Positions 9,482-63,615 of a stretch of 64,000 bases of DNA are shown here, in pieces (position 1 is the first letter of the stretch; each line of letters opens with the position of its first letter). A model generated the notes under the pieces. That model saw only the letters and a program-made list of their open reading frames with translations. It was not told the origin of the DNA and searched no databases. The stretch spans positions 1,482 to 65,481 of the forward strand of contig DBRS01000017.1 in NCBI GenBank assembly GCA_002306085.1, given 5' to 3'. This stretch comes from Candidatus Moranbacteria bacterium UBA1362 (GTDB lineage: Bacteria; Patescibacteriota; Minisyncoccia; Moranbacterales; GWC2-37-73). The translations under genes were made by a program, and so were the position numbers.

Positions 9482-9506
9482 AATTACGTAATTAATTACG
9501 TAATTT
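9482..9506. promoter_or_regulatory. Tandem palindromic TTACGTAA operator-like sites (2 copies, 12-bp spacing) upstream of the sigma4/HARE-HTH gene
   Basis: AATTACGTAATTAATTACGTAATTT; same motif recurs at 29469-29502, 46741-46788, 47960-47993. Confidence 0.5.
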
Positions 9507-27862: not shown

Positions 27863-29464
27863 TTAGCTCACGTTCAATCCCGTTGGATTCGCCGGCGCGG
27901 CCATGTCAAGATCGGCATAATAACCCATATTGGGACAAATACTCGGATCCTGCAGATGAAAATTGCTTTGAGCGGCATCAACAAATATCGATTGCGGATC
28001 GCTTCTAATTATTATCAGCGAATCGGGATCGAAGCCGAAAATGTTCCGAGCTTGAGTATAGGTATAATGTTCCACTCCTGACGGCATATAACGGGAAGCA
28101 AATTGAAAATCCGAATGAGGAGAAATGAAGCAGTTGTTGTTTGATGTCACCTGCTGCAACAAAGATTCCGCCACGTTTTCGGCGTCGGTATAAACTTCGC
28201 TTTTTGAAATATACGCGGGAGTGTCCCAATTGGCCCCCTGAACCCTCGAATTCAAACCACAGAAAATATTGTTGCGGATCGTATGTCCGGTGCCAGTCCA
28301 CAAAGACATCAAAAGATCAAGCCCGACGAAAGTATTATACTCAACAGTGGCGTTTTGTCCGGCAATAGCAACCAACCTGGGATCATTCATGATACCGTCA
28401 CTGTTGTTTCCCATTGCCCTAAACCCCCTGTCAACATTGTAGCTGAGATTGCGCACAAAATGCATATTTGAAGCTACAATAGTGCCAAGGCTTCCGCAAT
28501 CATGAATAATATTGTTTTCTATAAGAACAGGTCCGGCGGTGCAATTCTTAAAAAAGAACGCTTGAGGAACTTCATATATTTCATTATTCTTTATTTCTAT
28601 ATATCCCGTTCCTCCGCCTTCAAATCCCAAATACGATTGCCTTGAAAGCATCGTTACTGCTCCAAAATGCTGCGCATCAATAACGCCGTCCCATTGGTTC
28701 GGTTGCTCCCAATCATATATTCCATGTAACTTGTTGCCGTGTATGAAAATATTATACGGGCCTCCCCAGTCTCCTCTGTCGATCCGGACAATTCCCGGAT
28801 TATCTCCGCCGTCACAGGCAATGTCATGAATATTGTTATTTTTTATAGTTATATCATGTGTTTGAGCACTTTGTGTTCCTCCTTCAACATTCACAATGCC
28901 ACCCATTATTTCAAATCCCTCGATAACCCAATATGCCTTGAGGCCCACCGTGACAGCTCTCTTGAAAACTTCGCCATTGGGAGGAAATCCGGGATCAAAC
29001 CTTTGATCCGTTAAATCCAAAATTGGGGTCTCACCCGGATAGTTTCTGACAGTAATCGGATTGTTTTCCGCACCGCTGGCTATGGAATACGCGGGATGAT
29101 TCGACGCCCAGCCGCTAAAGTCTTTTATGCTTATAAATCCATAAGCGTCCTTGAAGCAATATCCATCTGTTAGTTTCTGCCCTTCCGGACAACTGGTTGC
29201 GCCAGCGCTGCTGGCGTCTCTTGCAATGCCTCTCACCATCGCATTGTCAAAATCATACGTGCCGCCACGCGCATATATCGTGTCCCCCGCTTGCGCCCTT
29301 GTGAGCGCCGGTAAAAATGTCTTGAATGGTTCCACTATGGTTCCGGATGCGACATCGTTTCCGTCAGGTGCGACATAATATTCCGCCGCTTCGGAATTTT
29401 TCGTAAAGCAAAAAAAACTGAGAAAAAGCACTGATAAAATTAATTTTCGAGCATGTCTTTTCAT
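27863..29464 (-). CDS. Secreted right-handed parallel beta-helix protein 1 (pectate-lyase-like fold); start moved to second in-frame ATG (track start 29494)
   Basis: signal peptide MKRHARKLILSVLFLSFFCF...SEA; PbH1-type repeats (NNNIHD, NNIIHD); TTACGTAA repeats between the two ATGs. Confidence 0.7.
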   Translation of the reverse strand: MKRHARKLILSVLFLSFFCFTKNSEAAEYYVAPDGNDVASGTIVEPFKTFLPALTRAQAGDTIYARGGTYDFDNAMVRGIARDASSAGATSCPEGQKLTDGYCFKDAYGFISIKDFSGWASNHPAYSIASGAENNPITVRNYPGETPILDLTDQRFDPGFPPNGEVFKRAVTVGLKAYWVIEGFEIMGGIVNVEGGTQSAQTHDITIKNNNIHDIACDGGDNPGIVRIDRGDWGGPYNIFIHGNKLHGIYDWEQPNQWDGVIDAQHFGAVTMLSRQSYLGFEGGGTGYIEIKNNEIYEVPQAFFFKNCTAGPVLIENNIIHDCGSLGTIVASNMHFVRNLSYNVDRGFRAMGNNSDGIMNDPRLVAIAGQNATVEYNTFVGLDLLMSLWTGTGHTIRNNIFCGLNSRVQGANWDTPAYISKSEVYTDAENVAESLLQQVTSNNNCFISPHSDFQFASRYMPSGVEHYTYTQARNIFGFDPDSLIIIRSDPQSIFVDAAQSNFHLQDPSICPNMGYYADLDMAAPANPTGLNVS

Positions 29465-29468
29465 ATTT

Positions 29469-29502
29469 TTTACGTAAGGTTTTACGTAAAACATTACGTA
29501 CT
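29469..29502. promoter_or_regulatory. Three tandem TTACGTA(A/C) sites (12-bp spacing) at or overlapping the translation start of beta-helix protein 1
   Basis: TTTTTACGTAAGGTTTTACGTAAAACATTACGTACTT; 24-mer nearly identical to 47970-47993. Confidence 0.55.
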
Positions 29503-29569: not shown

Positions 29570-31309
29570 TCAGCTCACGCTTAATCCCTGCGGTGAAGCC
29601 GGAGCGATCTCATCTCCCGAAGTCGTTGCGCCTTCGATCCAATCAGGGTCTCCCAAAGCGTTTTGCAAAATTGAAACATCAGCAAGATTCAGGACTCCTT
29701 CAACCCAATCGTTATCATCTGGGTTTGTCGCTCCGATGTAAGAAGGGATCGTAACGTCATCAAGATACGGATGTCCGCTTCCGATTCCGCCGTTTGAAAT
29801 GGTGGCCGAACCCGACACCGCATGCTCTTCACGAGTGATATAGCGGCTTGATCCGGAAGTGCCGCTCATCAAATTGTCGATTCCCTCAGAGCTTGCTTTG
29901 CGATAATTGCCGGAAATTTGAGGATAATTTGTCTCCCAATTGGAAATGAGCCCTATATCCCTGTGTCCGGGCGCGACCAAGTCCGCATTCCAAACGTCAT
30001 TGTTATTGTCAGGACGATAAAGATAGTTGTTTTTAAAATGGAAATCGTTCAGATTAAGAACCGTCGAATCGTCATAATAAGAAGCGCAACCGGAATCACC
30101 GGTGTTACACATATAGTCCCTAAAGCCCACCTGCCTGTTCCGATCACTGTCTACAAAGTTATCGATAATATTGTTATAGGTCCAGTCTTTGCGAAATGCC
30201 ACATCTCCCGCAGGATCCCAAAAATAATACTTGTTGCTTGTCGTGACGTATGAAAGAGAATAGTGAAGCCTCTTTACGTAATTATTATATATGCATGAAT
30301 AGAGCGGAGCGTAATCTCCGGTATACCCCACGCTTATATGGCTGTCCGGAATTATATTGTTGTAAATTTGCGCCAGATCCTGATTGGTCTCTATCATTTC
30401 CGACCCCAAAACAAGATTATGATGGATCTTGTCGCCGAAATGCTTGCGTGATTCCGTGATTGTTCCATTCACGGCGTGCGGGATTATTGTCTGACCAGCC
30501 TTGTGTTTGAAAGCTCTCGTCGACCTGTCGGTTGTTTCTTTGAAAAGGTTGTATCTGACAATATTCCTTGCAATCAAAGAATTTTCATTATAAGCCCCGT
30601 CAGCCAAAACATTTGTTTTCGAAATGAGCTCATATGAAACCGCATAGTCGCTCAAAAAAACTATCTGCGCGCAATTTGTTCCCGCGGTATCGGACGCTCC
30701 ATTGGAATCAAAAAAGTTATATTCAATCACCGAATCCATCGGGACATTGGCATAGATTCCGGCAGGATTATCTCCGCCAGTACCGGCATAATTGTCGTGT
30801 ATGTAACAATACCTCACAGTAAATGGACCGCCGGAAAGAGCGATTCCGGCGTTAGTCCCTCCGGATATCTCCAGACGCTCAAATCTCCAATATTTGACAC
30901 ATCCCGGTCCGGGACATTGGTTTTGATATGCTCTTAGTCCGATGACGCACCAGTCTCCGGAGCCCTGAATACGCGCCCATTCGCCGGGATAGGATTGTAT
31001 GGAGCTATAATCATCGGCGGTCCCGTCAGCTTTTATTTCAAACGTCTCGCGCCCGTCTCCCGAACTCGCATAAGTTCCGCCGCGAAGGTATATGTCATCC
31101 CCTCCTGCCATCGCGTCAAGGGCGGCCTGCACGTTCACGTATGCATCGCCGTCGCTTCCGCCGCAATTTCTGGCAGCGGTTGAATAGTTGCCCGACGTGC
31201 AATTTGCCGCAAGCGTCTGGTCGACATAAATATTCGCCGCTTCGGATTTTCCGGCAAACGCAAAAACACTCAGCAACGCGAAAAAAAATAATATCTTTTT
31301 TTGGTTCAT
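29570..31309 (-). CDS. Secreted right-handed parallel beta-helix protein 2 (paralogue of 27863-29464)
   Basis: signal peptide MNQKKILFFFALLSVFAFAGKSEA; beta-helix repeats; shared N- and C-terminal motifs with paralogue. Confidence 0.7.
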   Translation of the reverse strand: MNQKKILFFFALLSVFAFAGKSEAANIYVDQTLAANCTSGNYSTAARNCGGSDGDAYVNVQAALDAMAGGDDIYLRGGTYASSGDGRETFEIKADGTADDYSSIQSYPGEWARIQGSGDWCVIGLRAYQNQCPGPGCVKYWRFERLEISGGTNAGIALSGGPFTVRYCYIHDNYAGTGGDNPAGIYANVPMDSVIEYNFFDSNGASDTAGTNCAQIVFLSDYAVSYELISKTNVLADGAYNENSLIARNIVRYNLFKETTDRSTRAFKHKAGQTIIPHAVNGTITESRKHFGDKIHHNLVLGSEMIETNQDLAQIYNNIIPDSHISVGYTGDYAPLYSCIYNNYVKRLHYSLSYVTTSNKYYFWDPAGDVAFRKDWTYNNIIDNFVDSDRNRQVGFRDYMCNTGDSGCASYYDDSTVLNLNDFHFKNNYLYRPDNNNDVWNADLVAPGHRDIGLISNWETNYPQISGNYRKASSEGIDNLMSGTSGSSRYITREEHAVSGSATISNGGIGSGHPYLDDVTIPSYIGATNPDDNDWVEGVLNLADVSILQNALGDPDWIEGATTSGDEIAPASPQGLSVS

Positions 31310-46740: not shown

Positions 46741-46788
46741 TATTACGTATTTTATTACGTAAAATTTTACATATTTAAATATGTAAAA
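46741..46788. promoter_or_regulatory. Array of four TTACGTA-type half-sites, ending in a perfect 24-bp palindrome
   Basis: TATTACGTATTTTATTACGTAAAA + TTTTACATATTTAAATATGTAAAA (46765-46788, perfect palindrome). Confidence 0.5.
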
Positions 46789-47959: not shown

Positions 47960-47993
47960 AGTATGTAAAATATTACGTAAAATATTACGTACT
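47960..47993. promoter_or_regulatory. Tandem TTACGTA(A/C) sites 14-45 nt upstream of the AbrB-like gene start
   Basis: TATGTAAAATATTACGTAAAATATTACGTACTT. Confidence 0.55.
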
Positions 47994-52109: not shown

Positions 52110-53069
52110 TTATATTTTCTCTATCACTCTCAATTTTGCGCTTCTTGCGCGCGGATTTTTGGAAATTTCATCCTCTCCCGGCGCAATCGGCTTTCGAGTG
52201 ATCAGTTTCACCTTTGGCGTCCTGTGACATCTGCATACTGGAAATTCACTCGGGCAAATGCATCCCCTAGCATTTTCCCTGAACGTATGTTTCACAAGCG
52301 AATCCTCTCCGGAATGGAAAGTGATTATCGCCAGACGCCCCCCAGGCTTCAGCGTTTCAATTGCCTGGGACAGAAATGATTCAAGGGCTTCAAGCTCCCT
52401 GTTCACTTCTATCCTTAGCGCTTGAAATGTTTTGGTGGCGTAGTGGATTTTTTTGTGCTTGTACGCGGATGGCACAGAATTTCCGATCAGTTCCACAAGT
52501 TCGGAAGTCCAGGTGACCGGTTTTTCTTTCCGGCGAGCAACGATTTTGCGGACGATGGAGTTTGCGTACTGCTCATTGCCATATTCTCTTAGAATTTTTT
52601 TGAGCTCGTCTTCCTTATATGTGTTGAGCACATCGGCAGCCGTGATTCCCTTTGACCTGTCCATGCGCATATCCAGAAATCCCTCAGACTGGAAACTTAT
52701 CCCGCGGCTTTCGTCTTCCAGCTGGTCGGAAGATATTCCCAAATCCGCCAAGATCGCATCCACTTTTTCTATTTTCAAATCAGCTAAAATATTTTTTAAA
52801 TTTTTGAAATTGTCATGAATCAAACAAACGTTTGTCATTTTCGTGCCGCTTCCGCCCGCCTCTTTCGCATCATCCGTAAATTTTGCGAATCTCTTGAGCG
52901 CTTCCTCGTCCTGATCTATCGCCGCAAGCGTTCCAGTATTGCCTATTTTTTTGAGTATTTCGCGGCTGTGTCCTCCTCCGCCGAGCGTCGCGTCAACAAC
53001 AACCATTCCCTTTTTTAATTTCAGAGCATCAACTGTTTCTTCGACTAATACGGATTTATGGATGGACAT
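52110..53069 (-). CDS. rsmH: 16S rRNA (cytosine1402-N4)-methyltransferase
   Basis: MraW motifs (VDATLGGGGHS). Confidence 0.9.
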   Translation of the reverse strand: MSIHKSVLVEETVDALKLKKGMVVVDATLGGGGHSREILKKIGNTGTLAAIDQDEEALKRFAKFTDDAKEAGGSGTKMTNVCLIHDNFKNLKNILADLKIEKVDAILADLGISSDQLEDESRGISFQSEGFLDMRMDRSKGITAADVLNTYKEDELKKILREYGNEQYANSIVRKIVARRKEKPVTWTSELVELIGNSVPSAYKHKKIHYATKTFQALRIEVNRELEALESFLSQAIETLKPGGRLAIITFHSGEDSLVKHTFRENARGCICPSEFPVCRCHRTPKVKLITRKPIAPGEDEISKNPRARSAKLRVIEKI

Positions 53070-53114
53070 GACCTAAATTTTAAATTTTTAAAGTCTTTAA
53101 AAATTAAAAATTTT

Positions 53115-53549
53115 CTAATATATTCCCAGTTTTCCAAGTTGCTCTGCCACTTCATCAGTGTTCTCTTCCGCTTTCGCTCTGTACGATTTCCATTTGTCTT
53201 CCGCCCAGACCTCCAGCCTGTTATAAAGTCCCGCGACGACAACAGAGCGGTCAAGCCCCGCATATTCTTTGAGATATTCCGGAAGCAAAATTCTTCCCTG
53301 GCTGTCCACGTCGCTGTCGATCGCCCCCGCAAGCATCAATCTCACAAAGCTTCTTGTTGAAGATTCACCCATCGGAAGCGTTCCAAGTTTTTCAGCAAGT
53401 TCTTTCCATGTTTTCAGCGGATACACAAACAGACATTTGTCCAATCCCCTTGTGATGACAACTTTGCCTCCAAGCTCTTTTCTGAACTTTGAAGGAAGCG
53501 CGAGGCGCTTTTTCGGATCCAAACTGTGCTGATATTCTCCGATAAACAT
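53115..53549 (-). CDS. mraZ: Transcriptional regulator MraZ
   Basis: tandem SpoVT/AbrB-like MraZ repeats (DPKKRLALP). Confidence 0.88.
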   Translation of the reverse strand: MFIGEYQHSLDPKKRLALPSKFRKELGGKVVITRGLDKCLFVYPLKTWKELAEKLGTLPMGESSTRSFVRLMLAGAIDSDVDSQGRILLPEYLKEYAGLDRSVVVAGLYNRLEVWAEDKWKSYRAKAEENTDEVAEQLGKLGIY

Positions 53550-54003: not shown

Positions 54004-55210
54004 CTACTTTCTGTCTATTTTGCTTTTGAGATACGCGTAATATTCTTTGTTTATTTCCCCTTCGGTCGAATATGCCTTTATGGCTTTTTGTCTTGCGTTA
54101 TCTCCCATGTTCTCCCTGAATTCCCTGTCGGCAACAAGCTTGTCAAGCTTTTCACACCATTCCTCAGTTCCGCTTGCCACAAAACCGTCAACTCCGTCTT
54201 CGATTGCTTCACGAAAAGTTCTTGTGGCCGTGGCGATTGTCGGAACACGCAAGATTCCGGCTTCAAAAAATTTAAGTTCCGATTTTGCTTCACAAAAAGG
54301 ATTGCCAATTTCAAGAGGCGCTATGTTTATATCCATTCTAGCCACATTGAAAAAGTGCTCCTTGCGCGGAACGAAAGAAAGTTTTTTGATTCTGTCGCGG
54401 AAAGTGTTGAGTTTGTTTGTAAATTCAAGATAACCAGCAACATACAATTCAACTTCGGGATATTTTTCCATTATCATGTAGAGCGGCTCGATGACGGTTT
54501 CAAAATCCCTGTTATGGCTTGCGCTTCCCGAAAAATATCCTATTCTCACTTCGCTATGCGCTTCATATTTTTTATTGATGATGTCCTTGGCAAGTTTAAG
54601 ATCTTCGGCAGAAAGTTTGTTGCGAACAATAAAAACTTCTTTTCCCTTTTCGCGCAGCTTGTCGGCCAAAAACGATGTTGTTGTCGTGCACGTTTTGACA
54701 TAAGGATCGTTTAGAATTTCTGCTCCAAGACCGTTTTCAAAAAACTTTTTTTCCGTCTCGTTGAGATTTTTGTAGAAATCCTGCTGCTTTACGCATTCAA
54801 AGTCGAAAGTCAAATCGTCCGTTTCAAATATGATTTCTCCTCCGCATTCTTTTATTTTATCAATAAAGGACGCGATGTTCGCCGAATACGGAACTCTGTG
54901 AAAAATGAACACTTTGAAGTTTCGGACATATAAATCCAACCAGAGATTTTCCTGAATCGTGATTGAAGCGGAAATCCCGTGAAAGTTCAGCTCCTCGGCG
55001 ACATTCTTCACGCGATAGCGCCAGCTGTCTCCGACTGCGCCGCTTGAAATGAAAAGCACGTCCCCCGACCCGGCATGTCTCAAAACAGCCCAAAGCCCCA
55101 AAAAAGTTTTTTTGGAACCGGCGACAAGACCCTCATCCCTGAGCAGTAAACGTATTTTATTCAGATATCTTCCAAGCATAGAGTTAGGTTTATGTTTAGC
55201 TATATCCATT
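54004..55210 (-). CDS. Glycosyltransferase family 1 (GT4-type); start moved to ATG (track TTG start at 55248 overlaps a terminator hairpin)
   Basis: GT-B C-terminal domain pattern. Confidence 0.7.
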
Positions 55211-55212
55211 AT

Positions 55213-55243
55213 AGATAAAAACCCGTTTAAAGCCAAACGGGTG
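55213..55243 (-). terminator. Rho-independent terminator after secreted protein gene
   Basis: CCCGTTT-ggcttt-AAACGGG followed by TTTTTAT on minus strand. Confidence 0.6.
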
Positions 55244-55341
55244 GTCAAATAGCATGTTCAAATTATGGTCATTGAGATTAGGCGCGGGGCATGACCGCTT
55301 TTTTGCGTTCCTGACATGACACACGGACCTGATATATGGCG

Positions 55342-56154
55342 CTATTTCACTGTCAGACTGCTTGGCATTGCGGGGGGCGACAAGTCGACGTCAGGAATCC
55401 CGTTCCATATCTCATAGTCGTCGAATTGCCACCAACCCTCTCCCGGAAGGCATTCTACCGTAGCTTTGATGCTTGGAATATCCAAGGGTCTTGTGAAATC
55501 TCCCGTGATGATCGCATTGTCGTTGAAAGCATATGCGCCATCAAATTTCGCCCACGCAATGCCGTCCATGTTCTGGAATGTGGCGCCTGAGGATTTTTTC
55601 ATATATATCTCGACATGCAGCCAGTCGCCAATCACATAAGGGACACTCGCATATTTTGTCACTGTGGAATTGCCGTCCCAACTCATGCCCTGCTCCATCT
55701 GCCACTCCAGTCCCATGGTTTTGCTCGACGAATCATAAGATTGCCAGATGAGCTCAGTGTGAGGACCGGATCCGGTCGGAGCAGACATGATCTTCACATT
55801 CCAAATACCGCTATAATTTCCCCAGTAACCGCTTTCGTATTTTGCCCAATAAGAAACATATATCTCGCCCGAAGGAGGAAATCCGGCAGGCAACCTGAAG
55901 ATCAAGTCGCCTCCTCCGTCCTCATCGTTATGAGAAGTCCTTACGGATCTACCCGTGTGGCCCGAAGGATACGTGGGAACGCCCTCGCCATATAACCAAA
56001 GGGTGTTGACATATCCTAACATATCAACCAGACTGCTTTCATCAAATGTGACTCGGGAAAGCCTGTCCGCAGCTTTCCCTTCTGACGCAAAACTAAAAAT
56101 TCCGAAGGATAGAACGAAGAAGATCAATATATTTTTTTTCACAAGCCTTTTCAT
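55342..56154 (-). CDS. Secreted hypothetical protein (270 aa) ending in the same C-terminal tail as the beta-helix proteins
   Basis: signal peptide MKRLVKKNILIFFVLSFGIFSFASEGKA; C-terminus ...SPPAMPSSLTVK. Confidence 0.6.
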   Translation of the reverse strand: MKRLVKKNILIFFVLSFGIFSFASEGKAADRLSRVTFDESSLVDMLGYVNTLWLYGEGVPTYPSGHTGRSVRTSHNDEDGGGDLIFRLPAGFPPSGEIYVSYWAKYESGYWGNYSGIWNVKIMSAPTGSGPHTELIWQSYDSSSKTMGLEWQMEQGMSWDGNSTVTKYASVPYVIGDWLHVEIYMKKSSGATFQNMDGIAWAKFDGAYAFNDNAIITGDFTRPLDIPSIKATVECLPGEGWWQFDDYEIWNGIPDVDLSPPAMPSSLTVK

Positions 56155-56156
56155 AT

Positions 56157-58637
56157 TTATAGGCTTATCTTTTCACCTTTCTTTAGGTCGCCTGAAATGA
56201 TTTTTTTGGCAATGACGCTCTCAATTTTGTCTTCGATATACCTGTTGAGCGACCTTGCGCCGAAAATCGGGCTATATCCTTTGTCTATGATATCCAGAAC
56301 AACGTTTTCGTCAAACTCCAGTTGGATGTTTTTTTCCTTTGCAACCCTGCGGGCAAGTTTTTGGAGCTGAAGCCGCACGACGCTCTTTAGTTCGTTTCCG
56401 GCAAGCGGCCTGAAAAAGATCACGCCGTCGAAACGGTTCAAAAATTCTGTGCGGAATATATTATTTTCGATGGCATAGTCTACCGCGGCTTTTTTTATCT
56501 CTTCGGCGGCGCTTCCCTCATCAACCATCTTTTTGATTAGAGCCGCTCCGACATTTGAAGTAGCAATGATGATTGTGTTTCGAAAATTAATTTTTTCACC
56601 GAAAGCATCCGTAACGAACCCTTCATCCAAAATTTGCAAAAATAAATCCAGGATGTCCGGATAGGCTTTTTCTATCTCATCAAGCAAAACTATGGAATAA
56701 GGATTGTCTTTTATTTTAGTGGCAAGTCTTCCGGGCTGGTTCAGGTGGCTCGAGCCGAGAAGCCTGTCGACCGAACTGGGATTTTGGAATTCACTCATAT
56801 CAAAGCGCATCAATTTGTTCTCGTCACCGAAATACATTTTTGCAAGAGCTTTCGCCGTTTCCGTCTTCCCGACTCCGGTCGGACCGAGAAACATGAAGCT
56901 TCCAACCGGCTTTTGGGAATTTCTTATGCCGCTTCGCGCGCGTCTTAAGGCTTCCGAAACTTGTTTAATCGCTTCTTCCTGGCCGATTACTTGCCCATGC
57001 AAACGCTTTTCGAGATTAAGAAGTTTCTTCTTTTCGTCAGCGTCTATTTCCCCGTGCTGAATTCCGGTTTTCATTGTGAGATAGTCAGCAACAGTCTGTT
57101 CTTCAATGAGATGTTCCTGCGATTTTTTCTCCCAAAACATAAGTGTTTCCATCGCAAGATCTATCGCCCTTTCCGGAAGCGGAATCTTCCAATTGTATTT
57201 TTCCGACTCTTTGACAACCAATTTGAGCGCTTTGTATGTGAAAATCACTCTTTTGCTTTCGTGCTTTTCCAGTTCCATCAAAAGTATTTTGACGGCTTCC
57301 GTTTCGGAAGGCTCGCGCATTTCGATAACTTCAAAATATTTCGTGATTTCCTGATGCTTTTCAATCAATTCATGATATTCCTTCATGGTTGAAGTGGCGA
57401 TTATCCTGAACGAAGGAATGTCAAGAAATTCTCCGAGCACTGCGGAAATGTCGGGATGAAATGCGCTTTGATTTTTCCCCAAAAAATGCTCGACGTGTTC
57501 GATTGCCAGAATAACATTTCCCGCATAGCAACTTTCGGAAAAAATGAGCCGCAATTTGTTTTCAACATCTTCTCCGCGATTGATTGCATCGGCAATAACC
57601 CTGCCGAGATCCAGGAGCAGAATTCTTGCTTCGGCAAAACTTTTTTCATTCCTGAGACGCACATTGAGCGCAAACGCGTGAATAAGCGTTTTCTTGCCTA
57701 TGCCGCTGTCTCCCGCAAGCAAAACACAATTCTGATCGGGCCTCAGCATGATCATTTTTAGAAGTTCGTATTCATTATTCCTGCCCACAAGTTCCGATTT
57801 GAAATAACCTGTCGGATCGCCCTTCGAAAGATCCGTGCAATATCTGTCGAGATTGACGGTATATCCAAAACGCCACTGCCTTCCTATGGGAGTAGTTTTC
57901 TTGAGATTCTCGCTAAGCCAAAATTTTCCCGCATTATTTTTATCCCGCCAACGCTTGGTTTCCCATCTGACGATACTTTCAAATTCTTCGCCGCTTATAT
58001 TTTTTTCCTCAAGGAAATTTGCCAGCGATTTCTCGTCAGAAAAAATTGCGGAAAAAGTTTTTGGATCGGTTTCCACCCGATCGCATATTCTTTTGAAGAG
58101 CGGCTGCTTTGCGAGAAGCTCTGGTTTCATTTCGGATAATTCCGGTTTTGTGCTGCTGAAAAAAGACAGAAGCGAGGTCGCAAGCCATACCAGAACAATT
58201 GCAGCTACCGCAATCCAATTCAAACCAAGATAGAAATGCAAGGCAACAGTCGAAAACGGCGCACTGATCCAAAAGAAAACAAGAGCGAGACCAAGTGACA
58301 TTAAAACAAGAAGAAAAAATATCCCCAAAAGAATGACACAGAGGCGAACAAACGCTCCAAGCAACCTTGAAAACATGTTTTCAAAAAAAATTTCCAAACT
58401 CTTCAGCGGATGCCATCCGCGCCAATTTCCGGCTACGGCGTCGCGGTGCCATGGAGAAAAAAGCGTCAAAGAAAGTTCTTTAAGCGAAAAAAAATCCAAA
58501 ACAAAAACCAGGAAATTTTTCCAGATTTCAAATATTCCATGGATTCCTTCATTGAAGTACCAGGACAAAAAATTGAGACGTTTCATTTTGAAATTATTTA
58601 AATTTCTCACACATCTGAAAGCGCGCGGAAAGCACAA
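56157..58637 (-). CDS. Membrane-anchored ClpA/ClpB-like double AAA+ ATPase (no M-domain, no ClpP IGF loop seen)
   Basis: N-terminal ~4 TM helices; D1 Walker A GDSGIGKKT; D2 Walker A GPTGVGKTE plus sensor regions. Confidence 0.7.
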   Translation of the reverse strand: MCFPRAFRCVRNLNNFKMKRLNFLSWYFNEGIHGIFEIWKNFLVFVLDFFSLKELSLTLFSPWHRDAVAGNWRGWHPLKSLEIFFENMFSRLLGAFVRLCVILLGIFFLLVLMSLGLALVFFWISAPFSTVALHFYLGLNWIAVAAIVLVWLATSLLSFFSSTKPELSEMKPELLAKQPLFKRICDRVETDPKTFSAIFSDEKSLANFLEEKNISGEEFESIVRWETKRWRDKNNAGKFWLSENLKKTTPIGRQWRFGYTVNLDRYCTDLSKGDPTGYFKSELVGRNNEYELLKMIMLRPDQNCVLLAGDSGIGKKTLIHAFALNVRLRNEKSFAEARILLLDLGRVIADAINRGEDVENKLRLIFSESCYAGNVILAIEHVEHFLGKNQSAFHPDISAVLGEFLDIPSFRIIATSTMKEYHELIEKHQEITKYFEVIEMREPSETEAVKILLMELEKHESKRVIFTYKALKLVVKESEKYNWKIPLPERAIDLAMETLMFWEKKSQEHLIEEQTVADYLTMKTGIQHGEIDADEKKKLLNLEKRLHGQVIGQEEAIKQVSEALRRARSGIRNSQKPVGSFMFLGPTGVGKTETAKALAKMYFGDENKLMRFDMSEFQNPSSVDRLLGSSHLNQPGRLATKIKDNPYSIVLLDEIEKAYPDILDLFLQILDEGFVTDAFGEKINFRNTIIIATSNVGAALIKKMVDEGSAAEEIKKAAVDYAIENNIFRTEFLNRFDGVIFFRPLAGNELKSVVRLQLQKLARRVAKEKNIQLEFDENVVLDIIDKGYSPIFGARSLNRYIEDKIESVIAKKIISGDLKKGEKISL

Positions 58638-58731
58638 ATTTTTTGTAAAGATGAATCAAGCTTCTTTATTACATAATTTTACATCATCAAATATCGCTTT
58701 GCAAATATGAAAATTTGATTGTATAATTGGA

Positions 58732-60609
58732 ATGTCGCCAGCTGAAAAACTCTCGGTTTACAGCCAAAAAATATTTAAATTGCGGTCATCTAAACTACGC
58801 AAAAAACCGATGGAAAACAAAAAATTATCACTTTCGGATTATCATATATTCTTTCTGAAATCAATCTTTTTTCTGGGAATAGTTTGGGTAAGCTTTATCC
58901 TCGCGCTTTTGGGATTTTTTTATGCTTCTTTTATTTGGATCGCCGCCGTAATTTGCGGAATTTTTTTCTTTTGGAACGCCGCTTCGCGCGGTATGCGTCT
59001 CACGCCTTCTGCAGAAATGATGATCGCAAGCGCAGTCATCGCGCTTATTGCGCTGTCATTTTCAATCTTTTCCACTCCCACTGTATTTTCCGGACGCGAT
59101 CAGGGATCCATAAGCGAGGCAGCGATACGGCTTGCCCAAAACCATACGATCGAATTTTCAACTCCAGCAAGCAGTGAATTTTTCAAGATATACGGACCGG
59201 GACGCGCCCTGAATTTCCCGGGCTTTTATTATACCGAAAACGGCCAGCTGACAAGCCAGTTTCCTTTGGTCTACATCGTTTGGCTTGCGCTGTTTTTTGC
59301 CTTATTTGGAACAACTGGATTTGCAGTCGCAAACGCCATTTTGGGATTCATGTTCCTAATGGCGCTATATCTGTTGCTGCGATTTTTCCTGAAGATCCCT
59401 TCTTCTTCTCTCGGAATCGCTTTCATCGCGACATCATTCATCTTTATGTGGTTCTCAAAGTTTACGCTGAGCGAAAATATGGCACTGCCCATACTTTGGA
59501 TTTCCATATTGTCTCTTATTCTTTTTTTAAGAAGACCCCGCAAACTCAGCTACGCGGTTCTTCTCGCGTCATCAGCTCTTATATGCTTTACAAGAATAGA
59601 AGGATTCGCTTTTTTTGTGGTATCCATAGCAATAATTTTTCTCAGCAGAGATGCTAGGGAATTCATCAAGGCCAAAATATTAAAAAGAATATTGCTGCCA
59701 CTGGGCTTCTTTGTCGCGATCCTGCTCTTGAATGCGGTGCAAGACATAAGCTTTTATATCGAACTTGCCAAAACATTAATCCCCAAAGTGACTCCTCCAC
59801 AGGCCCAGCAACTCGGAGAAATGAAAAACACGGTGCTTCCTCCTTTTTATACAGGAAAAATATTTCATTTGTACGGTCTTCTCGGATTCTTCATTTTGGG
59901 CATGCTGGGAGCAGTTGTGCAGGCGCTGAAAAAAGACGTCAGCAAACTTATCCCCCTGTTTGTCGTTGCTCCCACATTCATATATTTCCTGAATTCCCAC
60001 ATCACACCGGATCATCCCTGGATGCTCAGAAGATTCGCTTTCTCTATCTTTCCTGCCGCTGTTTTCTATACAGCGATCCTGGTTGGAGAGCAAATTGAAA
60101 AAAATCAGGCAAGCAGCAGAGAAAAGAAACTGAAATTTATTTCTATTTTTATTTCCCTGGCACTTATCGCTGGAAATCTTGTAGCATTTGTTCGCTATTT
60201 CCCGTTTTCTGAACACAAAAATCTTCTTGCGCAAACGGAAATGATCAGCGAACAATTCTCATCGAACGATCTCGTCCTTCTGGACCGTGAAGTCACAGGT
60301 GACGGCTGGTCGATGATAAGTGGACCGATGAGTTCCCTTTTTGGGAAAAATGCAGTATATTTTTTCAATAACCAGGATTTCAACAAATTAGATTTGGATA
60401 AGTTTGAAAAAGTCTATCTTATGGCACCTGCAAGCAAAGCCAATTATTATCTTAACAGCACCATAGGAAACAGACTATCACCCGTAAACAATTACAGCTT
60501 TACCTTTCCGAAGCTGAATATGGGGCAAAAGGATCCGCTTAAAAAAGTGATCTTTCCTGAAAAGAAAGAATTCTTAGTGACAGGAAAAATTTTCCAAGTA
60601 TCAAAATAA
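58732..60609 (+). CDS. Polytopic GT-C-type glycosyltransferase (PMT/ArnT/GT39-like); true start possibly at Met 58810
   Basis: ~12 TM helices over N-terminal 450 aa then soluble C-terminal domain; sigma-70-like TTGCAA-17-TATAAT at 58700-58728. Confidence 0.5.
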   Translation: MSPAEKLSVYSQKIFKLRSSKLRKKPMENKKLSLSDYHIFFLKSIFFLGIVWVSFILALLGFFYASFIWIAAVICGIFFFWNAASRGMRLTPSAEMMIASAVIALIALSFSIFSTPTVFSGRDQGSISEAAIRLAQNHTIEFSTPASSEFFKIYGPGRALNFPGFYYTENGQLTSQFPLVYIVWLALFFALFGTTGFAVANAILGFMFLMALYLLLRFFLKIPSSSLGIAFIATSFIFMWFSKFTLSENMALPILWISILSLILFLRRPRKLSYAVLLASSALICFTRIEGFAFFVVSIAIIFLSRDAREFIKAKILKRILLPLGFFVAILLLNAVQDISFYIELAKTLIPKVTPPQAQQLGEMKNTVLPPFYTGKIFHLYGLLGFFILGMLGAVVQALKKDVSKLIPLFVVAPTFIYFLNSHITPDHPWMLRRFAFSIFPAAVFYTAILVGEQIEKNQASSREKKLKFISIFISLALIAGNLVAFVRYFPFSEHKNLLAQTEMISEQFSSNDLVLLDREVTGDGWSMISGPMSSLFGKNAVYFFNNQDFNKLDLDKFEKVYLMAPASKANYYLNSTIGNRLSPVNNYSFTFPKLNMGQKDPLKKVIFPEKKEFLVTGKIFQVSK

Positions 60610-62475: not shown

Positions 62476-63615
62476 TCACCTGTTTTTTCGCGCATCAAGT
62501 AAAACCTTCAGCGTTTCTTCGGCACACTTCCGCCATGAAAATTTTTGCGCCTGCTTAAATCCTTTTTCTATCAATTCTTTTCTTTTGTCATCATAAGCAA
62601 TAATTTTCTCAATATTTTCTGCTAAAGCAACGGGATTTTCCGCATCGAAAAACAATGCCGCATTTCCGGCCACTTCGGGAATGCTTGAATTTTTTGCAGA
62701 AATGACGGGAACTCCTGAAGCCATTGCTTCAAGAATCGGAATTCCAAAACCTTCGTACAGTGAGGGAAAAATGAAAATTAAGGCGTTTTGATAAAACGCC
62801 GGAAGATGCTCAAAAGGCATTGTGTCTGTTATAACAATATCCTCCTTGAAACTGCTTTGGGAAATTTTTTCAAATACTTCTTCATATTTCCAGGCTGGAG
62901 CTCCGGCAATGGCAAGCTTGATTTTGCTGTTGCCTTTTTTAATGATTTCAAAAGCATCTATCAAAACATTGATGTTTTTCCTAGGCTGGATAGCTCCAAC
63001 ATAAAGAAGGTAATTGCCGGATTCCAGCCCATATTTTTTCAGAATATCGATTGCCGCCACCTCTGAGCTTATTTTCTTTTCAAACAATTCGCGATCAAAA
63101 CCGTTGTGCACCACAGAAATTTTTCCTTCTTTCACGTCGGGATAAAACTTCAATATGTCTTTTTTTGTAGAATTGGAAATCGCGATTATGTGGTCTGCCG
63201 ACCGCACCGCTTTGTCTGTAAGCATATTAAGTTTGAATAAATCTTTTGCGGTAAAATGCTCAGGAAAAATCTTAAAAGCCAAATCATGAATAGTGACCAC
63301 AGTCTTGAGATTTCTTCTTCGCAATATGGGCAAATTCTGAACCGGCATCCAAAGAACATCAGAACTGTCTCTGAAAATTCGGAACGCGAATGCCGTTTGA
63401 GTCCAAAACGCCCGCGATTGACATCTTTCAAAAAAATAATTTGGAAATTTGGGAGGTTTAAGTTTCGGATTAAAGTTTGATTTGTGATAGATGAAAAAAG
63501 AATTTTCCCTGTCGATCTTTCCGAAATTTTTAAGAATATTTAAAAGATAGACCCTGGTGCCGTCTATCCTTTGATGATCCAAATCTGCTGCGTGAACTGC
63601 AATTTTCATATTCAA
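62476..63615 (-). CDS. Glycosyltransferase family 1 (GT4)
   Basis: GT-B E-x7-E region YEGFGIPILEAMASGVPVI. Confidence 0.8.
   Translation of the reverse strand: MNMKIAVHAADLDHQRIDGTRVYLLNILKNFGKIDRENSFFIYHKSNFNPKLKPPKFPNYFFERCQSRAFWTQTAFAFRIFRDSSDVLWMPVQNLPILRRRNLKTVVTIHDLAFKIFPEHFTAKDLFKLNMLTDKAVRSADHIIAISNSTKKDILKFYPDVKEGKISVVHNGFDRELFEKKISSEVAAIDILKKYGLESGNYLLYVGAIQPRKNINVLIDAFEIIKKGNSKIKLAIAGAPAWKYEEVFEKISQSSFKEDIVITDTMPFEHLPAFYQNALIFIFPSLYEGFGIPILEAMASGVPVISAKNSSIPEVAGNAALFFDAENPVALAENIEKIIAYDDKRKELIEKGFKQAQKFSWRKCAEETLKVLLDARKNR

Follow-up and report, generated by a model that had tools for sequence, protein, structure and literature searches.

A minus-strand gene in the window (the whole stretch of 64,000 nucleotides analysed here) encodes an Hsp100-derived double-AAA+ ATPase, predicted to be membrane-anchored, which belongs to a large, previously undescribed and uncharacterised family of Patescibacteria. 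The ATPase is probably a remodeller driven by its second AAA+ module (D2) at the inner membrane face, serving envelope biogenesis. The adjacent gene for a predicted secreted protein (S270) belongs to a recently acquired cassette and is not a conserved partner. The probability of this reading as a whole is put at roughly 0.55. The features are listed in Table 1.

Table 1. Features of the ATPase gene and its neighbours (positions in the window).
Feature	Position	Strand	Remarks
mraZ and rsmH, start of the dcw cluster	52110..53549	-	strand shared with the ATPase
GT4 glycosyltransferase downstream of the ATPase	54004..55179	-	in 42/80 loci; database gene calls of 391–401 aa
Terminator-like hairpin	55221..55242	-	about 100 nt after S270, inside the high-identity block
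S270, 270 aa	55342..56154	-	signal-peptide-like N-terminus, C-terminal tail ...PPAMPSSLTVK; lineage-specific cassette, no conserved partner
Membrane-anchored Clp/Hsp100-like ATPase, CDS	56157..58586	-	809 aa and TAA stop; probable start
D2 AAA+ module and D2-small domain, canonical	56160..57056	-	Pfam, alignments, homologue counts
D2 Walker B IVLLDEIEKA	56664-56693	-
D2 pore loop LLGSSHLNQPGRL	56724-56762	-	shortened, without an aromatic residue
D2 Walker A GPTGVGKTE	56859-56885	-
D1 AAA+ module, deviant	57087..57806	-	alignments to ClpB/ClpC, homologue counts
D1 Walker B VILAIEHVEH	57486-57515	-
D1 pore-loop equivalent ADAINRGEDVEN	57558-57593	-
D1 Walker A GDSGIGKKT	57687-57713	-
Cytoplasmic helical linker domain (predicted), residues 146-260	57807..58151	-	conserved KFWxWENL...IGxQWRYGYTVxLDRY; no Clp_N match
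Hydrophobic block, residues 82-145	58152..58343	-	hydropathy, AlphaFold, K+R counts
N-terminal membrane module, residues 1-120	58227..58586	-	homologous to standalone Patescibacteria proteins of ~130 aa
Divergent promoter-like sites	58676..58727	.	share a palindromic TTGCAA -35; consensus matches only
GT-C-fold membrane glycosyltransferase, 599 aa	58810..60609	+	maximal ORF start 58732; divergent neighbour of the ATPase
P444, 444 aa	60622..61956	+	N-terminal TM helix, conserved Cys; co-operonic with GT-C; 57/80 loci
Small polytopic membrane protein, 136 aa	61958..62368	+	third gene of the GT-C operon; 22/80 loci
GT4 glycosyltransferase, convergent with the GT-C operon	62476..63615	-	53/80 loci

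The maximal ORF of the ATPase (56157..58637) starts with TTG at 58637 and encodes the 826 aa reported in an earlier note on this DNA. That ORF is present, but the ATG at 58586 is probably the start, giving 809 aa, because the database orthologues are 809–830 aa long and begin with MKR(P)NF.

Both P-loops quoted in the earlier note, GDSGIGKKT and GPTGVGKTE, are located in the ATPase, and two Clp/Hsp100 AAA+ modules are present. D1 and D2 both align to ClpB and ClpC, which corresponds to the two tandem modules of class I Hsp100 proteins. Pfam matches are AAA_2 and ClpB_D2-small. No peptidase family, including the M41 protease, is among them, and the protein ends with D2-small. The NCBIfam models score far below their cut-offs: 409 bits against 1232 for ClpB (TIGR03346) and 400 against 993 for ClpA, the latter aligned in a single continuous stretch over residues 194-825. 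D2 scores 275 bits with the D2 of Thermus thermophilus ClpB and is conserved about as in true ClpB.

Motifs of the two modules were counted over 76 homologues. Walker A, Walker B, sensor 1, Arg finger and sensor 2 of D2 are seen in all of them (76/76). The canonical Walker A (GxxxxGK[ST]) and Walker B (hhhhDE) are lacking in D1 only. The D1 Walker A reads GxxG[IV]GK-K-T, with the second K in 62/76, and its Walker B contains E in 69/76 and H/N in 72/76 instead of D-E. From these motifs, D1 looks incapable of ATP hydrolysis. The pore-loop tyrosines of Clp/Hsp100 proteins (KYRG; GYVG) were not found in D1 or D2 of the ATPase or its homologues. The D1 site reads (I/L/V)-(N/S)-R-G. The D2 loop reads GSSQLNQ(P/Q)G, is 4 residues shorter than the ClpB loop, and has no conserved aromatic residue among the 76 homologues. 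The word unfoldase, used for this protein before, is doubtful, since both pore-loop tyrosines are absent and D1 is seemingly unable to hydrolyse ATP. In the relatives of the split type described below, D1 retains the D-E Walker B in 13/53 and some have Phe in the D2 loop, so a dead D1 and the lack of threading may not hold across the family.

The M-domain, in ClpB a coiled coil inserted in D1, and the IG(F/L)-type ClpP-docking loop that ClpA, ClpC and ClpE carry in D2 are absent, as noted earlier. The HMMER alignment skips from 390 to 521 of T. thermophilus ClpB while the query proceeds from 500 to 511. The ClpC segment rfAgfggs lies opposite a gap in the query, which is collinear there with the loop-less ClpB. 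No Clp_N domain is matched in Pfam at E <= 5, and a profile of residues 1-255 matches no Clp chain among PDB sequences at E <= 10.

Residues 1-120 constitute a membrane module (N-module) with the conserved motifs TLxSPW(K/H)RD...WRG...NxxSRxxGxxVR, an amphipathic helix (residues 6-32 in the AlphaFold model of the N-terminal region) and a long hydrophobic helix. Searches of Pfam and the PDB gave no counterpart of the module. The hydrophobic block of ~65 residues is modelled by AlphaFold as two helices, 60-120 and 124-145. K+R counts are 10.6 ahead of the block, 0.56 in the loop and 6.0 behind it. Based on hydropathy, the model and these counts, the block most likely forms two TM segments in a helical hairpin with both termini in the cytoplasm, and positive-inside counts leave almost no extracytoplasmic portion. 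The first hydrophobic helix in the model is oddly long, ~40 residues, and there are three hydrophobic segments. Of the proposal of about four N-terminal TM helices, the hydrophobic N-terminus stands, but the number is probably too high, the single block being modelled as two helices. A cleaved leader is ruled out because the block does not begin until 80 residues in and the residues preceding it are conserved. Two further similarities were rejected. The resemblance of residues 1-255 to the M1-M2 hairpin of Na,K-ATPase is insignificant (E ~ 0.04, profile against PDB sequences), and a weak Pfam match to CobD/CbiB (E = 0.05) is considered noise from transmembrane composition. One standalone module is labelled CobD/CbiB by JGI.

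More than 100 full-length homologues of the ATPase were obtained. The ATPase is present in 447 species genomes, and 1548 representative proteins match at E <= 1e-3. The named members all come from Moranbacteria, Paceibacterota, Portnoybacteria, Parcubacteria or the "Patescibacteria group". The family is restricted to Patescibacteria and very common there, with a single copy per locus. In a full-text literature search, no paper was seen to describe an Hsp100 anchored in the membrane of CPR/Patescibacteria; one promising match, the Lipocone paper, turned out to be irrelevant.

Two features can define the family: the N-module motifs (SPWxRD, NxxSRxxGxxVR, W...P) with a hydrophobic hairpin behind them, and a Clp-like ATPase of deviant D1 to which the module is fused or just ahead of which it is encoded. 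The window ATPase fits this definition. Its members share the N-module, the TM hairpin, the helical linker, a deviant but structurally kept D1, and canonical D2 and D2-small. Missing family-wide are the Clp_N domain, the M-domain, the ClpP-docking loop and the pore-loop tyrosines. In other Patescibacteria, the N-module is a separate gene of ~130 aa that abuts or overlaps the start of the Clp-like ATPase gene, and these split-type ATPases carry two TM helices of their own. The standalone module gene is directly ahead of a 2-TM Clp-like ATPase in 61/69 metagenome loci; L090 and L095 are examples of this order. An HMM of the standalone modules alone matches the N-terminus of the window ATPase at E = 7e-31. 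On this sequence evidence, the fused and split forms are linked by a putative fusion or fission between N-module and ATPase. The adjoining or overlapping genes in the split lineages indicate that the module and the ATPase work together.

The nearest known systems are ClpB/Hsp104, ClpA/ClpC, FtsH, the torsins and SpoVK. The tandem AAA+ pair, the strongly similar D2 and D2-small and the lack of a ClpP-docking loop are shared with ClpB/Hsp104, the disaggregases of class I Hsp100. The window ATPase differs from these in lacking Clp_N and the coiled-coil M-domain, in its predicted membrane anchoring via the new N-module, in its deviant D1 Walker motifs, in the loss of the pore-loop tyrosines with a shortened D2 loop, and in a score one third of the ClpB cut-off. 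The D1-D2 layout without a long M-domain resembles ClpA/ClpC, class I unfoldases that are coupled to ClpP, as does the unbroken alignment to the ClpA model, but the IGL/VGF ClpP-binding loop, the N-domain and the pore-loop Tyr are absent, D1 is deviant and TM helices are present. FtsH is a bacterial AAA+ machine anchored at the cytoplasmic membrane face by an N-terminal TM pair. It combines one AAA module of the classic clade, whose pore loop is aromatic, with an M41 protease in the same chain. The predicted topology of the window ATPase is similar to that of FtsH, but its two modules are of the Hsp100 clade and a protease domain is absent. Torsins, membrane-associated AAA+ proteins of the eukaryotic ER and nuclear envelope, are related to Hsp100 D2 and have no aromatic residue in the pore loop. 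Their presumed activity is the remodelling of partners, without threading. They are lumenal, consist of a single module, lack the Arg finger, and depend on LAP1/LULL1. The Hsp100-D2 kinship, the membrane association and the loss of the aromatic residue are common to torsins and the window ATPase. The differences are that the family of the window ATPase has an Arg finger and a sensor 2 that never vary and that its ring would be cytoplasmic.

The divergent neighbour had been described as a GT-C/PMT-like glycosyltransferase. Its GT-C fold is confirmed by comparison of the AlphaFold model (pLDDT 88.6). The best Foldseek PDB matches are ALG12, ALG9, PglB and ArnT, all at probability 1.0, and STT3, Pmt4 and EmbC also match at probability 1.0. 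The acidic motif of the first outer loop, R96-D97-x-G99, is invariant. The sequence match is weak (PMT_2, E = 0.015), and the profiles of this protein and P444 give no matches against PDB sequences; the assignment is therefore based on the structure comparison. The promoter-like sites match the consensus as TTGCAA-17-TATAAT on the plus strand for the GT-C operon and TTGCAA-17-TAAAAT on the minus strand for the ATPase. The TTACGTAA-like promoter site proposed earlier (TTACATAA, 58669-58676) is no more frequent than chance would give: 18 matches with at most one mismatch against 19.5 expected.

The linkage of the ATPase to a glycosylation locus holds in Moranbacteria. The GT-C gene is divergent and adjacent in 54/69 loci and missing in 15/69, GT4 genes lie downstream, and the divergent pairing is retained down to 38% ATPase identity. 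The position after the ATPase is taken in relatives by a GT4 of ~395 aa, often also by a DUF4012 protein. In split-type relatives, mraZ is directly 3' of the ATPase in 20/55 loci and an FtsQ-like gene is upstream in 14 of the 55. Outside Moranbacteria the neighbourhood varies, and some members are among unrelated housekeeping genes. For two family members of ~890 aa, an Hsp70 gene lies 5-6 kb upstream.

The D2-driven remodeller would work as follows. The ATPase would form a hexameric ring on the cytoplasmic side of the membrane, in which D1 may serve as a scaffold or nucleotide sensor and D2 may hydrolyse ATP. The movement of D2 might be passed through the TM helices and the N-module to membrane-embedded partners, instead of Tyr-mediated threading into a protease. 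Membrane proteins of envelope biogenesis would be the likeliest clients, although the identity of the clients and the direction of force are guesses. In Moranbacteria these could be the adjacent GT-C/GT4 machinery of glycan assembly, and elsewhere components encoded near the dcw cluster. In Bacillus, SpoVK, an AAA+ ATPase at the membrane surface, acts on the cell-envelope glycosyltransferase MurG and promotes it, as an AAA+ chaperone dedicated to a glycosyltransferase (PMC11513918). The likeness of SpoVK is a functional analogy only: it is a soluble single-module protein of another AAA+ clade and serves sporulation only.

The non-uniform context and the 15/69 Moranbacteria loci without GT-C make a more general role possible. 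The ATPase could be a housekeeping factor of reduced genomes for membrane-protein quality control, a tethered, protease-free extractase or disaggregase of the ClpB/FtsH kind, with the GT and dcw neighbours as inherited gene order. Gene-order conservation in Patescibacteria may inflate the apparent linkage. This explanation, which we hold at about half the weight of the remodeller, agrees with the very wide spread of the family, the ClpB-like conservation of D2 (the 275-bit match) and the variable context outside Moranbacteria, where two members are near Hsp70 and one further member is amid unrelated genes. It is harder to reconcile with the loss of both tyrosines normally required for Hsp100 threading and of Clp_N and the M-domain for the coupling of substrates or DnaK. 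The survival of the divergent pair at low ATPase identity and the recurrence of mraZ/FtsQ-like neighbours in another clade also argue against it. A bolder and improbable idea is that the N-module and the TM helices of the hexamer constitute a new type of membrane-embedded AAA+ machine on the Hsp100 scaffold, an ATP-driven extractor, insertase or translocon, which would be a lineage-defining core of envelope growth and division in Patescibacteria. Loose analogues of such a machine would be Bcs1 or force transmission of the FtsEX style.

Returning to the remodeller, S270 has no part in it. The earlier note combined a membrane-anchored double-AAA+ Clp relative with a linkage to glycosyltransferases, both of which stand, and with a coupling to the exoprotein, which is not supported. 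It supposed an export-assist or envelope quality-control module for tail-bearing secreted proteins, in which the ATPase is paired with S270. The arrangement is as it stated: the TAA stop of the ATPase is followed after 2 nt by the S270 ORF. No terminator lies in between, and the terminator-like hairpin comes after S270. The pair is retained in the sister species, and in one related locus (L017) a tail-motif protein is encoded about 5 kb downstream of the ATPase. However, no S270 homologue is found in any of the 80 related loci, which indicates chance adjacency. The database contains two homologues only, one of which, 49% identical, is without an ATPase nearby. The tail motif is present in 1 of 2277 ORFs of the related loci, and the other two tail proteins of the window are about 25 kb off. 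The nearly absent extracytoplasmic part of the ATPase is also unfavourable. The S270 block of ~1.1 kb (~55110-56210) is 95% identical in nucleotides to the sister species, the sole species sharing it, whereas the flanks are about 77% and the ATPase gene 77% identical. This difference indicates a recent arrival or exchange of S270. By these comparisons, S270 is a recently acquired cassette, co-transcribed by its position, and not a functional partner of the ATPase. The export-assist model, already largely refuted by the non-conservation of the gene pair, is very unlikely.

A role in anti-phage defence as a ClpB-like component such as DolB of Dodola is rejected as barely credible: two PADLOC models, PDC-M37B and DolB (the latter at 131 bits), do match in the D2 region, but 131 bits against 409 for ClpB indicates a cross-hit via the common AAA+ fold, no neighbour matches PADLOC and thus no DolA is present, and the single copy per locus in synteny with core envelope genes over hundreds of species is unlike defence islands.

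To our knowledge, the characterised Hsp100/Clp ATPases are all soluble, act via pore-loop tyrosines, and partner with ClpP or DnaK. The present family departs from them in its predicted membrane integration, its dedicated small membrane partner, fused or separate, its degenerate first ring and the lack of gripping tyrosines. These departures suggest a wider range of uses for the Hsp100 scaffold. Patescibacteria are ultra-small bacteria of minimal genome, about whose envelope biology very little is known; the links to the GT-C locus and the dcw cluster offer concrete, testable partners of the ATPase. The current database label of these proteins, "ATP-dependent Clp protease ATP-binding subunit ClpC", misleads metabolic and proteostasis inferences from Patescibacteria genomes.

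The start codon of the ATPase is likely the ATG at 58586, giving a protein of 809 aa, because the N-terminus MKR(P)NF is common to its homologues. An identical protein in the database, encoded by a Candidatus Moranbacteria MAG, is also 809 aa long. Public gene calls differ for the same sequence (loci L085 and L086, identical to window 56157-58637). Two records give 809 aa, and two others give a 714-aa ATPase plus a spurious 125-aa antisense ORF across the membrane-module region, so that the N-terminal module is lost. Pfam places AAA_2 at residues 576-737 and ClpB_D2-small at residues 747-825, while the first P-loop has a weak AAA_16 match alone. The NCBIfam models ClpB, ClpA, ClpV, ClpK, and ClpG all score far under their cut-offs (for ClpB, 409 bits vs 1232). 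From here on, residue numbers are those of the 809-aa form.

Coordinates of the features discussed, with the number of Moranbacteria loci (L001-L080) matched in tblastn searches with the window proteins
Feature	Position	Strand	Description	Loci with match
ATPase, maximal ORF	56157..58637	-	826 aa from TTG
S270, tail-motif gene	55342..56154	-	270 aa; start 2 nt past the ATPase TAA stop	0/80
GT4a	54004..55179	-		42/80
GT-C-like	58810..60609	+		59/80
P444	60622..61956	+		57/80
P136	61958..62368	+		22/80
GT4b	62476..63615	-		53/80
Tail-motif gene	27863-29494	-	window
Tail-motif gene	29570-31309	-	window
Tail-motif gene	L017:17509-19017		related locus outside the window
Tandem palindromes	9484-9503, 29470-29501, 46743-46762, 47961-47992		window, intergenic

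Family-averaged hydropathy shows a single strongly hydrophobic block at residues 82-145 and an amphipathic, mildly hydrophobic stretch at residues ~20-40. In an AlphaFold model of residues 1-280 (77 sequences, pLDDT 83), helices at 6-32, 35-40, 60-120, and 124-145 are followed by a helical domain at 155-255. This model has no PDB fold match, and the N-terminal profile has no significant match to Clp_N or any other model. The mean K+R counts are 10.6 for residues 1-81, 0.56 for the variable loop 106-123, and 6.0 for residues 146-175. These counts favour a predicted 2-TM hairpin with both ends cytoplasmic and almost nothing outside. The observation in the earlier note of a double-AAA+ Clp relative with a predicted membrane tether is confirmed; its figure of ~4 TM helices is probably an overcount. 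The reading as a cleaved leader is rejected, since residues 1-81 are well conserved; they contain the motifs TLxSPW(K/H)RD, WRG, and NxxSRxxGxxVR.

The Clp features were checked by HMMER alignment to solved structures. The M-domain is absent, because ClpB 390-521 spans only residues 500-511 of the window ATPase. The ClpP-docking loop is also absent, with ClpC 'rfAgfggs' falling opposite a gap. ClpB is likewise loop-less in this region, and the window ATPase is collinear with it there. In D1, the window ATPase has GDSGIGKKT, ADAINRGEDVEN, and VILAIEHVEH, whereas ClpB has GEPGVGKTA, AGAKYRGEFEE, and ILFIDELH at the equivalent positions. Among 76 full-length homologues, the P-loop lysine of D1 is followed by K in 62, the usual T being shifted one position later. 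The Walker B pair of D1 is E in 69/76, then H or N in 72/76; where the pore loop would have Tyr, there is N or S. In D2, Walker A, Walker B, sensor 1, the Arg finger, and sensor 2 are seen in all 76. The D2 pore loop, GSSQLNQ(P/Q)GRL, is 4 residues shorter than GAPPGYVGYEEGG and contains no conserved aromatic residue in these homologues. Based on these motif states, D1 of this clade probably does not hydrolyse ATP, and D2 would be the motor; the canonical tyrosine grip is missing.

More than 100 full-length homologues are found at 43-79% identity. The ATPase is seen in 447 GTDB species genomes, with Moraniibacteriota making up nearly all of the best 80. The Moranbacteria-type locus also occurs, in full synteny and with ATPase identity of 50-60%, in several MAGs named 'uncultured Bdellovibrionales' or 'Micavibrio' (L003, L005, L020, L021, L029, L041, and others), whose taxonomic assignment is probably mistaken. 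Searching with a profile of residues 1-255 gives 1548 representative proteins at E <= 1e-3, of which 817 pass E <= 1e-10. Many of these matches are standalone proteins of ~125-135 aa spanning profile positions 5-119, and no Pfam model covers these membrane modules. At locus L090, there is a 4-nt overlap between the standalone module gene and the start of the gene for an 814-aa Clp-like ATPase, which is 37% identical to the window ATPase from residue 179 to the end. This protein carries its own pair of TM helices and wholly lacks a D1 P-loop. Here (L090:6393-8837), LLVSNDKEEKL replaces GxxGxGK of D1 and D2 is canonical, an extreme of D1 decay within the family. The module and the ATPase are arranged in the same way at L095.

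Eighty metagenome loci (L096-L175) were recovered with standalone modules as the scan query, and 77 of them contain the standalone module ORF. In 69, the next same-strand ORF begins -60 to +300 nt from the module. Of these following ORFs, 61/69 match the window ATPase, and the remainder are mostly contig-end fragments with TM helices. In these split-type ATPases, Walker A of D1 is absent in 21/53 and otherwise follows GxxGxG[KR]x[ST]; Walker B is D-E in 13/53. An HMM built from standalone modules alone matches the N-terminus of the window ATPase (E = 7e-31). This is a classic fusion/fission signature, which indicates from sequence that the ATPase and the membrane module function together. The named members belong to Paceibacterota, Portnoybacteria, Parcubacteria, and 'Patescibacteria group', and are annotated as ClpC, 'AAA family ATPase', or hypothetical protein. 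Neither the N-terminal module nor the ATPase family is represented by a Pfam or NCBIfam model, and full-text literature searches found no description of the family. The family is rated as Hsp100-derived and not previously described in the literature searched.

The gene order in L001-L080 is fixed: GT4b; P136, P444, and GT-C on the opposite strand; the ATPase; a variable slot; and GT4a. GT-C is divergent from and adjacent to the ATPase in 54/69 loci with enough upstream DNA. The sequence matches of GT-C are weak (PMT_2, E = 0.015; NCBIfam LA_3751/2, E = 1e-7). Its structural model (pLDDT 88.6) has ALG12, ALG9, PglB, ArnT, STT3, Pmt4, and EmbC as top Foldseek PDB matches at probability 1.0, and the GT-C fold is thus confirmed at the level of the predicted structure. 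P444 is conserved as the second gene in the GT-C operon. Its product has two invariant cysteines and a single N-terminal TM helix, and ~400 of its residues probably lie extracellularly; Pfam, NCBIfam, and PDB sequences gave no match.

In relatives, the variable slot 3' of the ATPase is occupied by a ~395-aa GT4 (39 loci) and often by a ~470-aa DUF4012 protein (16 loci); neither gene is present within the window, where S270 takes up this slot and is probably co-transcribed with the ATPase. S270 has only two homologues in databases. One, at 49% identity, has no ATPase nearby, and the ATPase-S270 pair is found again only in the sister species (L081). Between the two species, S270 is 96% identical, while the ATPase, GT-C, and GT4a are 79-81% and the other flanking genes 67-74% identical. 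At the nucleotide level, S270 is 95% identical (88% at third codon positions) and the ATPase gene 77% (55%). A ~1.1-kb block (window ~55110-56210) reaches from the final ~50 nt of the ATPase gene through S270 and a terminator-like hairpin into the start of GT4a; its nucleotide identity to L081 is 90-100%, with flanks at about 75-80%. This indicates recent exchange, horizontally or by recombination. Because of this high identity and the restriction of the pair to the sister species, S270 is best read as a recently acquired or exchanged cassette and not a conserved partner. The interpretation in the earlier note is thus partly supported, for its membrane tether and its link to glycosylation but not for the coupling to the exoprotein.

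S270 shares the tail [AP]-P-A-x-P-x-[GS]-L-x-V-[SKQ]-stop with other proteins having signal-peptide-like N-termini. This motif is seen in 3/110 window ORFs vs 1/2277 ORFs of 80 related loci. As it lacks a TM segment, the tail differs from sortase or exosortase signals; it resembles the linker and first strand usually preceding an Fn3 domain. Tandem palindromes, TTACGTAA-N4-TTACGTAA, 12 bp apart, occur in four intergenic regions of the window, one set closely preceding the tail-motif gene 27863-29494. Eleven strand-wise matches are observed vs 0 expected by chance, and the palindromes are probably an operator of a dimeric regulator. The lone TTACGTAA copy with one mismatch at the ATPase/GT-C promoter is at chance level.

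In 20/55 split-type loci (about 36%), mraZ is the gene directly 3' of the ATPase and shares its strand, within 340 nt in 13 of these, and an FtsQ-like gene is just upstream of the module-ATPase pair in 14. In the window, mraZ, rsmH, ftsL, and ftsI are located 2.6 kb downstream of the ATPase on the same strand. Some other family members are located among unrelated genes. A general role in membrane-protein quality control is the main rival to a dedicated role in envelope biogenesis. A defence-system reading is rejected, as the DolB match is a cross-hit.

An AAA+ chaperone that serves a glycosyltransferase has a precedent in SpoVK, which promotes the activity of MurG (PMC11513918). The data establish the architecture, the motif states, the family, the module-ATPase linkage, and the genomic contexts. 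Beyond these, the ATPase is inferred to form a hexameric ring on the inner face of the membrane, where D1 would be a scaffold and D2 the motor, and its output would be relayed via the TM helices and the N-terminal module to membrane partners. The most likely clients would be envelope-biogenesis proteins: in Moranbacteria, the GT-C/GT4 machinery; in other lineages, proteins of division or of the wall.
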